Positions 7,875 to 64,000 of a stretch of DNA of 64,000 nucleotides are shown here, one piece after another. A program made the position numbers and the translations under genes. Source of the stretch: a virus (Duplodnaviria > Caudoviricetes); the IMG/VR virus record IMGVR_UViG_3300031994_000067, positions 1 through 64,000 of that record; one strand, given 5' to 3'. Under the pieces are notes generated by a model. It was not told the origin of the DNA and did not search any database. It was given only the letters and a program-made list of their open reading frames with translations. Position 1 is the stretch's first letter, and each line of letters opens with the position of its first letter.

Positions 7875-8402
7875 TTACCATTTCTTGTCTTTCTTGCCGC
7901 CGCGACCCTTGCGGTCAAATGCCAGTGAATCCAAACCGATTTTGATTTCCCTCTTGCGCGCTTTTTCTTTGTCCTTCTTGTCTTTGCCGTGTGTCAGGAA
8001 TGCGCGCATGAATTCCTCGATGTTCGGCAATTGGAAACACATTTGCGCAGCAAAATCGCTGATTGCGCGCGACTTCTTCGAGTCCATATCGAGACCTGCA
8101 CGCTGCTTCAAAATTTCGCACGCATTCTTGACGGTTTCAATCGCTTCGCCGAGATTATCGAGACCTTCTTCAGGTTTTTCCTGTGAGAACATGCTGAGGT
8201 CAACTTCGGTACCGCAACGCGAGCATTTGTAAACGTGAGGTCTGCCGGTAGGTTGAAGCCGAGTTTTGCCGGACTTTTTGATGTGCTTGCAGTCGGCACG
8301 CATTTTGCGCTTCTTCAGCTTAACCTTCTTTTCCTCTTGCAGAAGATCGAGCATCTCGTCATCGAGCCCGTCCTTCTTTTTCTTATTTTTGTCTTTGCTC
8401 AT
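7875..8402 (-). CDS. Lys-rich early protein with a Cys/His (Zn-binding-like) motif
   Basis: GGAGG RBS; C-x2-H and C-x2-C residues; TATATATTAT at 8452-8461. Confidence 0.7.
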   Translation of the reverse strand: MSKDKNKKKKDGLDDEMLDLLQEEKKVKLKKRKMRADCKHIKKSGKTRLQPTGRPHVYKCSRCGTEVDLSMFSQEKPEEGLDNLGEAIETVKNACEILKQRAGLDMDSKKSRAISDFAAQMCFQLPNIEEFMRAFLTHGKDKKDKEKARKREIKIGLDSLAFDRKGRGGKKDKKW

Positions 8403-8474
8403 AGTTTTTGCCTCCTTCAAATGAGCACACAAGTTAACGTCATACGGGAGAATAATATATACTTCAAACTGTGT

Positions 8475-8768
8475 TTAAACATCGGTGCGATAATACTTCT
8501 TATCTTCTTCCTTTTCGACAAACACAATCGATTGAAGATTCTCATTCTCCTCGACACTATATTGAGGTGTGTACTGTTTGTTAATTGTAAACGGTTGCTG
8601 TTTCTTGTAGAAAATCCAAACGTCATCTTCTTCGTCCCATTTAACTTGTTCTTCCCAGGGGATTCCATATTTAATGTAGAAAAACTTACCGGAGTCAAAG
8701 ATGAATTGAATAACGTTTTTCATTCCGCCTCGTTTATCTATTTGACGAAGCCAGTTCTGCATTTCCAT
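8475..8768 (-). CDS. Hypothetical protein, tandem paralog 2
   Basis: 97 aa, aligns by eye without gaps to 8771-9064 (NWL..I.KRGG..N..QFIFD; DEEDDVWIFY; QPFTIN; LQSI.FVEK.EDK.YYR.DV). Confidence 0.8.
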   Translation of the reverse strand: MEMQNWLRQIDKRGGMKNVIQFIFDSGKFFYIKYGIPWEEQVKWDEEDDVWIFYKKQQPFTINKQYTPQYSVEENENLQSIVFVEKEEDKKYYRTDV

Positions 8769-11984: not shown

Positions 11985-12132
11985 ACTAGGGTTAGAGATT
12001 TTATTCTCTAACCCATTTAAACACGTTTTCACCTATATATTATCTTCTTAGAAAGTGAATTGAATACAGTCTTAATTGCTCGAAATTAGACTGAACTAAA
12101 TTATTCATATATGAGAAGTAGGTGAAAATAAC

Positions 12133-12297
12133 GTGCCGAAAAAGTGGAGTATTAAGGACACCGAGGTTATCAAACCTTGGTATCCTCAAGTTGCTTCAGC
12201 GAATACTCTCAAAGATGCTCGCCAGAAGATCGCAAATCCGATGGTAAGAGCGTTCCTGAATGCGACCGGCTTATCGCCGGCAAAACTTCTGAAGTGA
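12133..12297 (+). CDS. 54-aa early protein below the ORF-track cutoff
   Basis: GTG start after TAGGTG RBS (MPKKWSIKDTEVIKPWYPQVASANTLKDARQKIANPMVRAFLNATGLSPAKLLK); TATATATTAT at 12034-12043; hairpin plus T-tract at about 12329-12360. Confidence 0.6.
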   Translation: MPKKWSIKDTEVIKPWYPQVASANTLKDARQKIANPMVRAFLNATGLSPAKLLK

Positions 12298-12376
12298 ACC
12301 TTAACCCCTCACTTTAGAAGAAAAAAGTTTCAGGTTCGAGCACCTGATTCTTTTTTTTGTATATCTGTTACGAGTT

Positions 12377-58544: not shown

Positions 58545-59497
58545 GGGGTGCGTTAGAAACTCAAAGAAGGTTTTCAATTAAGTTTCTAACTGCTACCCAA
58601 ATGACCAAACCCTTGGCTGTCCGACTCCCTTGATTCGCGGAGGCTAACAATTCGAAAATTGCGCCGAACTATCTCAGATATACAAGTCCAATGCACTACA
58701 TTGAACGAGTCAATACGGACGATTGCTGCCCGGATATGCTGGAATGCGTCTATATACCACTAGGCTCTCAGCGTTCCCCCAGCGATCAAATCTGGGTTAG
58801 GAGCCACAAACGTGCTTTGATGGAATAGACTTCACGGATACTTTTTTGCGTAAGCGAATTCATCATATGAACCCTCTGACCATAGCGCGGTCCTGTCGTG
58901 TTCAAAGAACGCCAATTATGTTTGTATATCGTCTGGCGGGATTCCACGGAAGCTATCTGTCTGTCATTACAACAGGTTTAAGTCAGACCTCTTGGATAGG
59001 GCGGTACTCGGAATTATCACAACCCAATCGGCCACGCTACTCTACTGACACCGTTTCCATACTGAAGTTCGTTAGAATCAATAATAAGAAAAATTCTTTA
59101 AACCAGTCGTGGGTGAAATTTTCACGCCTCCTCAACAAGTTGCGGCGAAATACCGACTTCAATCGCAAACCTTTAAACCTCCTCCATCTATAATAGAATT
59201 TCTCAGAGGAAAAAGTTCCTGTCTAAACCACTACATGACATTTTAAAACGTCCTGCGCGGTATATATGTCCATAGGTAATCTAGGAAAACGCCACCCTCA
59301 CCCGTCACGTATTTTCCGACCGTATCCCTCTACCGGCTTCTTCTGAGCACTCAAGTTCTTTGCCGTTATTCCGCTGGTTAATCAATGACTAGGCAGGGAC
59401 TGTTATTAACCTTACACATAGTGTAAGTAAGTGAATGCCCAATCTGGAATAAACCAGATTTCTGATATATAGGTATAATTCCTCCGCAATCTCAATC
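58545..59497 (-). ncRNA. Candidate large (~950 nt) highly structured non-coding RNA
   Basis: No credible ORF. Long-range helices 59481-59495 with 58630-58643 and 59461-59469 with about 58670-58678; many local hairpins; G.U pairs read correctly on the minus strand. Confidence 0.6.
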
Positions 59498-59643
59498 ATG
59501 TAACCTGACGCGAAGCGGGGTGTTTTAGCGTTAGCCATCAACCACATATAGTCGTGTTAATAGGTTGTGTTTCAAAATCGAAGAAAAAAAACGCGCCGTA
59601 TATTTTGATAACGACGCTGATGAGGCAATGCCTCCTCTCTTAA

Positions 59644-59883
59644 TCAATATGCGCGACGATGTGTGTGACGACGTGTGCGATTTGCGTAGCGATGTGCGCA
59701 GTATGCAACCACGCACTCCACCAGCACTCTCTGAGAGAGCGCGTTCGCCACATCTTCAAATACGACTTCTCCGCTTTTGTCGAGACCGACAACGACCGGT
59801 CGGCCATCGACACCGTATGATATGTCAGCGACAATTTCGTTGTCGCCGACAACGACGAGATATTCGTCTTCAAACTTCATCAT
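59644..59883 (-). CDS. Small early hypothetical protein
   Basis: ATG at 59883 follows the repeated promoter/leader cassette. Confidence 0.65.
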   Translation of the reverse strand: MMKFEDEYLVVVGDNEIVADISYGVDGRPVVVGLDKSGEVVFEDVANALSQRVLVECVVAYCAHRYANRTRRHTHRRAY

Positions 59884-59885
59884 TC

Positions 59886-59975
59886 TTATCTCCGTCCTTT
59901 CAAAACGGATCGTAGGTTTCTTCATATCAGTAGTGAGTAATCCTACTTAACTCTTCTACGCGGATATAATATATA
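59886..59975 (-). repeat. 90-bp direct repeat, copy 1 (early promoter plus structured leader plus RBS)
   Basis: Identical to 60436-60525. Confidence 0.95.
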
Positions 59976-60117
59976 AATATGGGAGAGGGTAATATCGGAT
60001 TAAAAATCTCGTCCATACAATAAATTAGAGAAAAAAAGAACCCGCCCGTCAGACAACATGACGGTACCGGGCGCGAGATTGTTGCCGGTAGTTGCCCTAG
60101 GGCGGGGTGTGGGCATT

Positions 60118-60432
60118 TTAGTTGAATTTAACCCACCAGTCTGTCATTTCCACATCACCGGTCTTGGTATCGACACGGTACGTGAAAATGACCTTGTTGT
60201 ACTCGACGAACGGAGAACCATTGGGATAGCAGTCTGTTCCCTTACAGGTCACTCCGCTTGCGACCAACGTGGCAGTTCCGACGCCGGGCTTGCCGTAATT
60301 GAGGCTGACGCTAATCACGGCATATGACATATCATCACAGCTGCTGCCGTAATGTATGTTTCCGTTCGTCGCGTCGAGTTCGATTTGCGCAGCAATAGTT
60401 TTCTTTGCGCGCTTAACGTTGAAGTGTGTCAT
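60118..60432 (-). CDS. Small early hypothetical protein
   Basis: ATG at 60432 follows the repeated cassette. Confidence 0.7.
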   Translation of the reverse strand: MTHFNVKRAKKTIAAQIELDATNGNIHYGSSCDDMSYAVISVSLNYGKPGVGTATLVASGVTCKGTDCYPNGSPFVEYNKVIFTYRVDTKTGDVEMTDWWVKFN

Positions 60433-60435
60433 TAG

Positions 60436-60525
60436 TTATCTCCGTCCTTTCAAAACGGATCGTAGGTTTCTTCATATCAGTAGTGAGTAATCCTACTTAA
60501 CTCTTCTACGCGGATATAATATATA
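60436..60525 (-). repeat. 90-bp direct repeat, copy 2
   Basis: Identical to 59886-59975. Confidence 0.95.
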
Positions 60526-60584: not shown

Positions 60585-63500
60585 TTAATAGAGATCGTCT
60601 TTAGGTTTGAAGCTTGGATTATCTTTTTGATACATCTCAAGCCACCTACGTTTTAATTCGACGATAACTTTATTTCCGTACATTGTGCAAAAGATTGATG
60701 GGGTCATACGTGCTAACACACCCGCTGGTGCGAAAGTTGACGAAATTTCTTCATCAGGTCTATCTATTGAATATGGTTCTTGTCCTTTTGCGATGAGCTC
60801 CAGTAATCTTCGCATAGGTTCGCTAATCCTATGCCGTTCTATTATGAACTGCTACATGTCTCCATGTAAGCTGAGACTATATCATCATCTCATAGAGATG
60901 TCTCCCATTTCACTCCGCTTGGAGCTACGCCTTTCGGCTAGTCGTTGAACGTTCTAAAAAATCTCGATTCCTTCATCAATATAGACAGTATTTTGTACAA
61001 TAGAAAGATTGGTGTCAACTATTTTCTTCCTGGTTCTATACAATTTTTTCGCAACTTTTTTAGGAACACCTTTTTCAATAAGAGTTTTAACAATCTTCTT
61101 CTTAGACGTTCCACAAATAATTGCTCTGTCTATAGAGTTGAAATAAGTTCTATAAACCACAAACGAATTCGCAAATTTCAAATTCAAACCTTCAGTAAGA
61201 TATTTATAAACACTTTTTGACTTAATTTTTGATATGGTATCATTAGATACACCGGTTAAATCAGAAATTTCGCTCCGCGTATAATCACCAGTTTCTAACA
61301 ATTCGATCACTTTCTTTATATTGGCGATCTTATATTTGTTATTATGGTGATCTTCACCTTTAGGGAGAGATATGAGATTATTATCATATGCGTGCTGAAT
61401 ATTCTCAGATTTTGTACACCATTCAAGATTTTCTAATCGGTTATCTGTTTTAATACCATTTTTATGATTAACATCAGGAAAATTTTCGGGATTTGGTACA
61501 AACGCTTCCATAATCAATCTGTGAACAAATTTATGCACAGTTTTACGTTTGATATACATACTGTATCTCAAATACCCATGTTTACTTAAAAACGGTTTAA
61601 GAAAATGACCAGTTTTTAAGTTTTGTAATCTCCCATCTCTGTATATCATATAATTCGTGAGTTTGGAATTGACGTATACAACTTTTCGATCGTCACTATC
61701 CACAAATATCACTTCTCTCATCAAAAAATTAAGAATGTGTTTAGTGGTTAATAGAAATGAGTCTTTAGTTTCGCTGCGGATTGTCTCTATTCTCACTCTT
61801 TTTACCATACCTGAGTAGTTAATTCAGCCGCGTAATACATTACTGCTTACGTTTGGTAAATGAGACCTAACGAGATGTTCCCGCAATTAAGGAGATTCTA
61901 ATATGTAGTCACCTACATATAGGGTCAGTATAGGCCGTTTACATACTTCCAAATATCTTCGCATAGGTTCGCTAATCCTATGCCGTTCTCTTATGAACTG
62001 CTCTACGTCTCCGCAGAAGTTGAGACTATATCATCATCCATATAGGATGTCCCCCATTTCGCTCCGCTTGGAGCTACTCGCTTTCGCGATAGTCGTTGAA
62101 CGTTCCTTCTATAAGAAGGCTTCGCTGCTGATTATCTTTATCTTACCGATTTTTACACTTGGTACGATAAGCATATCAAGACTTCCCAGCAATTAAAGGA
62201 ATTTTATCAATGTTGATTTCTCAACAAAGCCACTATTTGTGTTAATGGCTGTAAAATGGACCAATTTATCCAATAACTTCACATAGGTTCGCTAATCCTA
62301 TGCCGCTACTTAGCTGCTGCATGTCACCATGCAGATGAGACTATATCTTCACCTCAGAGAGGTGTCTCCCATTTCGCTCCGCTTGGAGCTACTCGCTTTC
62401 GCGATAGTCGTTGAACCTTCCTATTACAGGCTTGGCTGCTGATTGTCTCATAATGAGAGTTTCCAGCAATTAGAGAGATTCATATCCGTGATCACTCACG
62501 GATCGGGCAATAAATTTACCTACATCAAGATAGTCCTTGTATTTGATGAAAAATTTAATCAGAACGCCAAGATGAACTTTAACACCCATGATCTTTCCAT
62601 CTTCTCCACCGTCAACAACCACAGCCTTTTCACTGAATTCCAGACCGTTGACATCTCCACCACGTCTCTTAATCTCAGCTTCCTGTGCTCTAAGTCTGGC
62701 AAAATAAGCATCGACGATCTTCTTCAAAGACGGAGAAAGTTCTTTAGGTTCGACGGTTGTGTATATTCGTATATCTTCAATCACTCCAGCATACTTGGAT
62801 TTAACCGGAATTTTACCCATAAGCGTGATTTCTTCTTTCAACTCTTTACCAATGTTAGCCAACATCTTGTTGAATGAAGCGTCCTGAGATGAATTATCGT
62901 ATATAATCAGTGGGTCATTTACATTTACCTGCTGACCTATTTTGACGATGTAATCAACATTCGAGTTCATTCCAACTATAGCTTCTGCTTCCATACATAC
63001 TTCAGTTCCTAACTTCTTCGAAAGTTTATCCGTAACGAAATTACCATCTTCGAAGCTGGTATATGTAGCCATGCAAGCCACTTTAGTAAGAGTTCCTATG
63101 TTGAATCGTACACCTTCAGCCGGAGAACTCGAAAAGTATCTTTCGTTATATGCAAGAACAGAATTTTTCTTAAAATAAGTTCCCGGTTTAAGTGCGTCTG
63201 TATTCATCTTACTGGGCAGGTAAAACCCACCTGCTCCATTTTTGACGACTTTTGAATTAGCGTTAATAACTTGACGTTTCAATTTTCCTTGGAGATTCTT
63301 ATATTCGATTACAATAACCCCGGTCTTATCGTCTCGTGAAATTACCTTACCATCATCTTTCGCTACTATACAGAAATCAGTAGAAAGATGATAAGGTAAA
63401 ACTTTTTCAGCACCATTTGATATTAGTACCGGAGACGCATGTTCTACGGGGATGATGTGCTTGCTTTGTTTGACAGCCATTGAGACACGAATCTGATCAT

Positions 63501-63752: not shown

Positions 63753-64000
63753 CATAGGTTCGCTAATCCTATATCGCTCTTTTAAGAGCTGCTGTGAGTC
63801 CCCCCACAGACCAGACTATATCTTCACCTCTATGAGGTGTTCCCTGTTTCGCTCCGCTTGGAGCTACTCACTTTCGTGATAGTCGTTGAACCTTCCTTCT
63901 AATATAGAAGGCTTGGCTGCTGATTGTCTCTATTCTACCGATTGTTACACTTTGGTACGGTAGACCTAACGAGAGTTTCCAGCAATTAAGGGAATTTTTG
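63753..64000 (-). mobile_element. Group I intron (IA2), 3' part; 5' end beyond the window
   Basis: P AATTGCTGGAAA, Q AATCAGCAGCC, R, P7.1/P7.2, S and P9-P9.2 all present; exact 3' splice site uncertain (63733-63753). Confidence 0.88.

Follow-up and report, generated by a model that had tools for sequence, protein, structure and literature searches.

A probable gene for a conserved, structured non-coding RNA of about one kilobase in an AR9-like jumbo phage

What is encoded by a kilobase of phage DNA that holds no conserved protein gene? The first 64,000 nucleotides (nt) of the IMG/VR virus record IMGVR_UViG_3300031994_000067, referred to here as the window, are the start of a 79-kb record with an estimated completeness of about 32%, and their largest non-coding interval, without a long open reading frame (ORF), lies next to a gene for a protein of 173 amino acids (aa). 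An initial annotation made from the sequence alone had described this element as one large RNA folding on the minus strand at 58545-59497. From sequence constraint, compensatory changes among homologues, and a predicted late promoter, we consider it very probable that the element is a gene for a conserved, structured non-coding RNA on the minus strand. We also lean towards the more specific reading that it is an independent minus-strand gene of about 1.0 kb, whose product is a putative trans-acting scaffold or ribonucleoprotein (RNP) RNA of late infection.

The element is conserved along its whole length and has no conserved reading frame

The predicted RNA spans 58546-59547 on the minus strand (about 1,002 nt), from a candidate transcription start at 59547 to the presumed end at the foot of a terminal stem at 58546. 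It runs about 50 nt further in the 5' direction than first drawn, to about 59547, with a conserved promoter block reaching about 59575; the rest of the original interval stands, and all of the sequences quoted from it were found where they had been placed. Homologues were reached through relatives of the 173-aa protein (91, 71 and 67% identity), whose clusters span many Logan/ENA contigs. The full ORF-free region is present in clade A (the window, L016, L017, L018, L019, L020 and L021), with 90-100% identity, and in clade B (L003, L022-L024 and L027), with 90-95% identity within the clade and 77-80% to clade A. These two metagenomic clades, represented by many independent assemblies, provide seven distinct sequences that are homologous over the whole length. 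Homology begins about 28 nt upstream of 59547, just past unrelated upstream genes and their terminators, and ends at the early promoter of the next gene. Throughout both clades the element is directly upstream of the same gene, followed by Tmk-like and ThyX genes, and no partner gene was found to travel with it. One contig (L028:1536-2369), otherwise identical to another in clade B (L027:2973-3947), is short of 168 nt of the RNA (columns 567-735 of alignment A3, below), with a 2-nt CG microhomology at the joint and conserved helices cut through, which makes the contig a defective variant or an artefact of assembly.

The core of the element has changed less than the protein genes on either side, as seen when identity is profiled in 100-nt bins for the window against L003 and L016. 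With L003, four blocks of the RNA are 89-95% identical, compared with 41-87% in the adjacent coding sequence, in which ThyX is the maximum; with L016, most RNA bins are at 94-99% and most coding bins at 63-95%. Conserved blocks and short variable segments swap about ten times in 1 kb, within as well as between clades, and the variable parts correspond to predicted hairpin tips. This alternation would fit better with selection on an RNA than with one or two recombination joints.

Two ORFs are present in the element under translation table 11, one of 52 aa (59389-59547, minus strand) and an antisense one of 115 aa (58846-59193, plus strand). The former is frameshifted in clade B by a 1-nt indel and the latter in L016, L018 and L019 by 1-nt indels, and since both are destroyed in relatives the element has no conserved reading frame. 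Neither genetic code 4 nor the reading of TAG or TAA as glutamine opens a long frame in the element, and the indels between relatives include lengths of 1, 2, 5 and 8 nt, which are not multiples of three, as well as 25-42 nt. The description of the region as ORF-free is therefore upheld.

The element matches no catalogued RNA family

Comparison with Rfam by covariance models had been suggested at the outset, and Rfam 15 gives no match for the element at gathering scores and only chance-level hits (mir-567, snoZ157) at E<=10. The same search, blank over 58200-59900, scores the neighbouring group I introns at 80-101 bits. The homologue L003 has no match to the Rfam GOLLD or ROOL models at E<=1. 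BLASTN of the element against 50,697 phage records returned no match, exact 20-23-mers from the invariant core are absent from the IMG/VR and JGI metagenome contigs searched, and scans of IMG/VR and JGI anchored on the 173-aa, Tmk-like and ThyX proteins, used singly or as alignments, found one distant locus, which is element-free. We found neither an Rfam family nor, in the literature searched, a paper describing such an RNA in AR9-like phages. The original view that the RNA belongs to neither intron group (I or II) and is not tRNA-like agrees with the blank at E<=10. It had been proposed as either a member of a GOLLD- or ROOL-like class or a new one; the former part fails, as the covariance models are blank. 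As the element belongs to neither of these nor to any other Rfam 15 family, the surviving reading is that of a new class among the large structured RNAs carried by phages, themselves a loose group.

GOLLD and ROOL are large 'ornate' RNAs of phages and prophages that form RNA-only assemblies, as seen by cryo-electron microscopy (bioRxiv 10.1101/2024.12.08.627333 / PMC12286853). The element resembles them in its size class (0.6-1 kb), in being phage-borne and non-coding, and in having many conserved hairpins around invariant cores, but it lacks a covariance-model match at E<=10 and its carrier is a predicted AR9-like jumbo phage. ARAGORN detects no tRNA genes in the 64-kb window, unlike the usual neighbourhood of GOLLD and ROOL, which are typically near tRNA genes, although this is not strictly defining.

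The search results also bear on whether the element is a catalytic RNA or the relic of a mobile ribozyme, either a very divergent intron without exons or a new self-processing ribozyme. Three group I introns (Rfam RF00028) are present only 2.5-4.5 kb away, at 62001-62527 and 63792-64000, and an invariant, weakly paired core is a pattern like that of ribozyme active sites. However, these introns are readily scored, whereas the element has no group I, group II or small-ribozyme match at E<=10; the upstream genes differ without relationship from one homologue to the next and bring their own terminators, which leaves no exons; and no reverse transcriptase (RVT_1) is found in the 79-kb record, itself only about 32% of the genome. 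Because of these points we regard a ribozyme origin as highly improbable.

Compensatory changes support local hairpins on the minus strand

The seven distinct sequences were aligned (alignment A3, in which column 1 is 59547) and folded with RNAalifold. Because RNAalifold selects for covariation, the null model was obtained by re-running it on 40 alignments with columns shuffled within classes of equal gap content and conservation. The consensus fold contains 239 pairs in 39 helices, with 99.0% of cells paired. Changes on both sides of a pair (compensatory pairs) number 24, compared with 9.7+-3.5 in the shuffled alignments, none of which is as high (maximum 19), and for local pairs (span <60 nt) the corresponding numbers are 23 and 6.2+-2.9 (maximum 13). 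The consensus energy is -201.9 kcal/mol, compared with -175.6+-8.8 kcal/mol after shuffling (z-score -3.0; 0/40 as good), and sliding the 3' partners by 1-3 columns leaves just 1-3 compensatory pairs. The covariation that the initial annotation had proposed seeking in homologues is thus found for local hairpins.

The reverse-complement alignment folds at -167.2 kcal/mol with 17 compensatory pairs, less well than the minus strand, and on the minus strand 23 variable pairs include a G.U state and a further 17 G.U pairs are invariant. The G.U-mediated changes and the better fold together argue that the minus strand is the RNA strand, in agreement with the G.U bias remarked on originally. Comparison of the homologues shows about a dozen predicted hairpins that are maintained by compensatory and G.U-mediated substitutions working on the minus strand only.

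The same pairs bear on the alternative that the element functions as DNA, as an origin of replication, a packaging site or clustered binding sites for proteins, with hairpins that are incidental or form a cruciform. Its long invariant blocks without strong folding energy, and its standing as the largest non-coding interval in the window, would suit such a role. Yet pairs kept through G.U would be mismatched (A-C) on the opposite strand or within a cruciform, and the element contains no iterons, direct repeats, other internal repeats or arrays, and is associated with neither an origin-like turn in GC skew nor a switch in gene orientation. Its GC content is 43.9%, compared with 39.4% for the genome. 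These points against it lead us to give a DNA-level function the least credence of the explanations considered.

Predicted domains and variable segments

The local hairpins named in the initial annotation fared well. AATCTGG/CCAGATT, CTTACAC/GTGTAAG, CAATT-TTCG-AATTG, CCCAG/CTGGG and the terminal stem GTTAGAAACT/AGTTTCTAAC are all kept in relatives, and all five have compensatory changes. The first of these is hairpin H7 (59441-59460, minus strand, as are all structural features below), which occurs in three stem-keeping versions, TCTGG/CCAGA, TCTAACC/GGTTAGA and TCTGAC/GTCAGA. The second, H8 (59411-59427), is a hairpin with a variable tip, in which CTTACA/TGTAAG becomes CTTGCA/TGCAAG in L027, and a different hairpin of another length occupies its site in L003 and L022. 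Both lie in a predicted 5' domain (59288-59532), together with H9 and with H10-12 (59365-59317), the latter with five compensatory pairs. The domain is closed by a long-range helix (59532-59503/59310-59288) showing one double change (GC to UG) and four one-sided GC/GU or UA/UG changes.

Adjacent to the 5' domain is an invariant hairpin, UCCUAG-AUUAC-CUAUGGA (59269-59286), within a 43-nt invariant block that has no substitutions in the seven sequences; by our own reading it resembles an 11-nt tetraloop receptor, an assignment that is putative. It is followed by a first variable expansion segment (59156-59234), with 8-, 5- and 15-nt indels between the clades, in which each version is able to form its own hairpin (for example CCTC..GAGG as compared with CTCCC..GGGAG), and in which H17 (59219-59208) is a well-supported helix. 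A second expansion segment (59053-59112; A3 columns 458-517) is 60 nt long in the window, about 35 nt in L016 and about 18 nt in clade B. It falls in a central domain (58891-59140), mostly invariant, in which helices 59140-59133/58898-58891 and 59131-59126/58953-58948 are predicted to enclose H21-H29; here H26 (58974-58962) has one compensatory pair (UA to CG), and there are several GC/GU changes.

The 3' core (58664-58890) is the most conserved part, at about 95% identity between clades, and includes a 52-nt stretch unchanged in all seven sequences. Within it H34 (within 58802-58775) changes from CCCAG/CTGGG to CCAGG/CCTGG. Beyond the core are H38 (58647-58662), CAATT-TTCG-AATTG with a UUCG-containing loop, in which an A-U pair is replaced by G-C in clade B, and H39 (58546-58598), a terminal stem of 20 bp that has four compensatory pairs together with A-U to G.U changes among its four variants. 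H39 is a probable 3' end or terminator stem. Taken together, the helices with good support are H7, H8, H10-12, H17, H26, H34, H38, H39 and the one closing the 5' domain.

The long-range pairings first proposed did not survive comparison. The 9-bp closing helix (59490-59481/58643-58635) retains 9/9 pairs in the window only, 8/9 in L016-19 and 6/9 in clade B, with changes that are uncompensated, and the helix nested within it (TATATCAGA/TCTGAGATA) is down to 5/9 in clade B. The comparative data thus break the 59495/58630 stem that was to close the whole RNA, and favour other partners. In the consensus fold, positions 58643-58636 of its 3' arm (58630-58643) pair instead with 59259-59252, an alternative helix with 7/7 pairs in all sequences, the C-to-A change of L016-19 falling on a bulge. 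This partner is the more likely one in the model, although the helix is invariant and so unproven. The consensus fold also pairs 58678-58664 with 58890-58875, and the 5' end (59544-59533) with 58626-58614.

A predicted late promoter precedes the element

The 28 nt upstream of the predicted RNA (59548-59575, minus strand) form a conserved block with one substitution across the seven homologues. In Bacillus phage AR9 the late promoter consensus is AACA-(6N)-TA/G, whose last base is the transcription start (PMC5312081). An exact motif of this type, AACA CGACTA TA at 59558-59547 (AACA at 59558-59555, then N6, then TA at 59548-59547), is invariant in all seven, and its bases also contain TATG, the phiKZ late motif (cited in PMC5312081). 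Transcription is thereby predicted to start at about 59547 from an AR9-type late promoter, and no sigma-70-like site is present on the minus strand. The element therefore resembles AR9 late units in having an exact AACA-N6-TA in front, and the early motif TATATATTAT is used in both phages; it differs in that we found no report of such an RNA for AR9 and the word 'noncoding' is absent from the text of that paper (PMC5312081), and in that the start here is a predicted one. Elsewhere in the window a relaxed form, ACA-N6-TA, occurs in 18 of 34 upstream regions, compared with 3.6+-1.8 in shuffles, and the strict AACA-N6-TA in 3 of 34, which is not an enrichment. The relaxed motif typically comes after a T-rich stretch, 15-30 nt ahead of a AAAGGAGG ribosome-binding site, and is probably this phage's late-promoter consensus, a relaxed version of that in AR9.

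At the other end, H39 is followed by UUUAACUCGUUUUUU and then by the TATATATTAT early-type promoter of the 173-aa gene (58517-58526, minus strand), which we take as the downstream limit of the element.

A plausible scheme is that the non-virion RNA polymerase of the phage starts at about 59547 from the AACA-N6-TA promoter, and that the transcript ends at, or is shielded by, the covarying 20-bp stem (58598-58546) before the early promoter of the next gene. The RNA would then work in trans during late infection by virtue of its folded form, rather than by coding or by simple antisense pairing, whether as a scaffold, as the RNA part of an RNP or possibly as a self-assembling RNA like GOLLD and ROOL. 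Its functional surface would be the invariant, weakly paired 3' core, with the variable hairpins as tolerated expansion segments. We infer action by three-dimensional shape from the combination of late promoter, weakly paired invariant core and tolerated expansion hairpins. A precedent for a phage-encoded RNA that serves as a folded, structural component in a phage machine is the prohead (packaging) RNA of phi29, which is about 170 nt long and multimeric on the portal. The element, at about 1,002 nt, differs in size, and sequence or structural similarity between the two was neither found nor expected.

Several observations weigh against an independent structured RNA of this kind. The folding energy of the single sequence is ordinary (z-score -1.0 for the minus strand, with 5/20 shuffles as good, and -1.5 for the plus strand), and that of the most conserved 283 nt, in the 3' part, has a z-score of +0.5, such that structure beyond chance emerges only with homologues. 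The long-range helices are invariant and so are without covariation support, and folds specific to the two clades have just 66 pairs in common. In a cross-clade hold-out test, in which the structure was predicted from one clade and changed pairs were scored in the other, 38 of 92 changed pairs were kept, compared with 28-43 of about 95 when partners were slid. With no enrichment in this test the global fold is not established, and support holds for the local hairpins. The family is also narrow, with two closely related clades and so few independent events, and a sister lineage (L005-L008; neighbouring protein 67% identical) has no element at the site, where there is an AT-rich spacer and a divergent gene, which indicates that the element is not indispensable. 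Lastly, the 3' stem is not a canonical intrinsic terminator, so that read-through into the next operon is possible.

Read-through is central to the main rival explanation, in which the element serves as a long, structured 5' leader. The downstream nucleotide-metabolism operon would then owe late expression to the late promoter at 59558-59547, on top of that from its own early promoter, and the structure would act in cis in stabilisation, processing or regulation of the mRNA. In AR9, genes expressed throughout infection ('continuously expressed') do have an early promoter as well as a late one (PMC5312081). Between the terminal stem and the U run lies UUUAACUCG, and the stem is not called as a terminator; the element also keeps its place immediately upstream of one and the same gene in clades A and B. 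Against this, it would be unusual for a 1-kb leader to have a core more conserved than the genes that depend on it, the operon is expressed in the sister lineage without the element, and equivalent ORF-free regions in two distant lineages (L012 and L032, below) end in textbook hairpin-plus-U terminators before an early promoter. On balance we regard a leader as possible, though unlikely.

The hold-out result could also mean that the element has no function of its own, and reflects recombination between clades (mosaicism) or a decaying gene, with covariation arising from the selection of pairs on a small alignment. Phage genomes are mosaic, two clades only are available, and the covariation energy term by itself is unexceptional against the shuffles (z-score 0.9). 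However, the compensatory pairs exceed those of all 40 column-shuffled alignments, which were subject to the same selection, some ten alternations of conserved and variable segments per kb with the variation at hairpin tips are unlike the product of one or two recombination joints, and a recently dead gene is not indicated, as no frame is kept. With these points against it, a lack of function seems very unlikely, and a gene for a structured RNA on the minus strand continues to be the reading that we prefer.

Absence from a sister lineage and positional analogues in distant lineages

In the sister lineage from which the RNA is absent (L007:310-779; also L005, L006 and L008), ACACCCCTGTTTCGCGTTTTTT is kept just upstream of the gene. 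The 5' box ACACCCCGCTTCGCG (59524-59510) and the 3' box GCACCCC...CGTTTTTT (58552-58529) of the window element are both similar to this sequence, which may be the footprint of an element that was lost.

More distant lineages were reached through the Tmk-like protein (42-49% identity). Where neighbouring proteins are 28-47% identical, ORF-free regions of 765-980 nt occur at or near the same place, each before an early promoter. In one contig (P0006), known from gene layout only, a gene gap of 970 nt immediately precedes the 168-aa gene; L032-34 have a 765-nt gap (L032:8725-9420) ahead of a 164-aa homologue (28% identity, E 7e-19); and L012 and L030 have about 830 nt free of ORFs (L012:3367-4200) three genes upstream of a 175-aa homologue (29% identity). 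L009 has no ORF-free gap of this kind. In L012 and L032 the terminators noted above are clear and are followed by TATATATTAT, and these two regions are richer in GC than their own loci (43-46% compared with 36-44%). Rfam gives no match for either. The regions of L012/L030 and L032-34 show no similarity to the window RNA by an nhmmer family profile, BLASTN or shared k-mers, nor by a covariance model built on the 3' core, whether filters were on or off. The copies at hand of the L012- and L032-type regions are identical and offer no variation for covariation analysis.

It is tempting to speculate that the element belongs to a hidden, fast-evolving set of kilobase late RNAs at a fixed position in AR9-like jumbo phages, after the RNA polymerase beta gene and ahead of the 168-aa/Tmk/ThyX block, although we think this doubtful. 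If these analogues were true homologues or equivalents, they would point to a conserved large RNA machine (a ribozyme, an RNA cage or an RNP) that is needed late and is without known counterpart. Bacterial and phage RNAs longer than 500 nt with a conserved architecture are rare, and to our knowledge each such class so far (RNase P, group I and II introns, OLE, GOLLD, ROOL and HEARO) has proved to be a ribozyme, an RNP core or an RNA-only assembly. A kilobase RNA more constrained than thymidylate synthase, in phages with their own transcription machinery, would join this short list. The element makes a defined target, with clear boundaries, a predicted promoter and natural variants that show which hairpins tolerate change; its value is limited for now by a narrow distribution and by an uncultivated host and phage.

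The carrier phage and the neighbourhood of the element

The window encodes gyrase, a divergent family-B DNA polymerase, a DnaB-like helicase, PPK1, ThyX and split pieces of a multisubunit RNA polymerase, whose beta piece shares 32-36% identity with its counterparts in Staphylococcus S6-like phages, Yersinia phiR1-37, Listeria LPJP1 and Bacillus PBS1. The decamer TATATATTAT is present in 12 copies, compared with 0.25 expected, and the early promoter consensus of AR9 is AAATATATATTAT-(6N)-G (PMC5312081). Since TATATATTAT is the core of that promoter, the motif together with the RNA polymerase content places the carrier, as judged from its genes and promoters, as an uncultivated AR9-like jumbo phage and a deep relative of the AR9/PBS1 group.

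Downstream of the element the operon order is the 173-aa gene, a Tmk-like gene, ThyX and an NrdG-like gene. The 173-aa gene (57968-58489, minus strand) has a weak RecG_N-like match and is the constant downstream neighbour in three lineages, and it also occurs without the element; no family, PHROG or Atlas lead was found for its product, and searches of Pfam, PHROGs and the ESM Atlas with the neighbouring small proteins gave nothing useful. The slot upstream of the element (59600-60520 in the window; also in L003, L016, L018, L019, L022 and L027) is occupied by small ORFans that differ from one relative to the next in nearly all cases. These encode 93, 129, 156, 103, 111, 105 and 152 aa, with no common family and no Pfam or PHROG match, and each has an early promoter, a leader motif and its own terminator, such that the slot appears to be a hot spot for early genes of an accessory kind.

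Two further gaps are of a different nature. The second ORF-free gap of the window, at 11985-12376, is not an RNA gene; its content, at 12034-12360 on the plus strand, is an early promoter at 12034, a 54-codon ORF with a GTG start from 12134, and a terminator at about 12330-12360. In L032 a 495-nt gap (8018-8511) separates a 1688-aa gene from a 70-aa ORF and starts with AATTGCGGGGACGAACTCGCTAGGTC, which is closely like AATTGCGGGAACATCTCGTTAGGTC, found in the window among the introns and ahead of the HNH gene start at 61808. The Rfam model scores below gathering there, and the gap is probably a group I intron ahead of the last exon.

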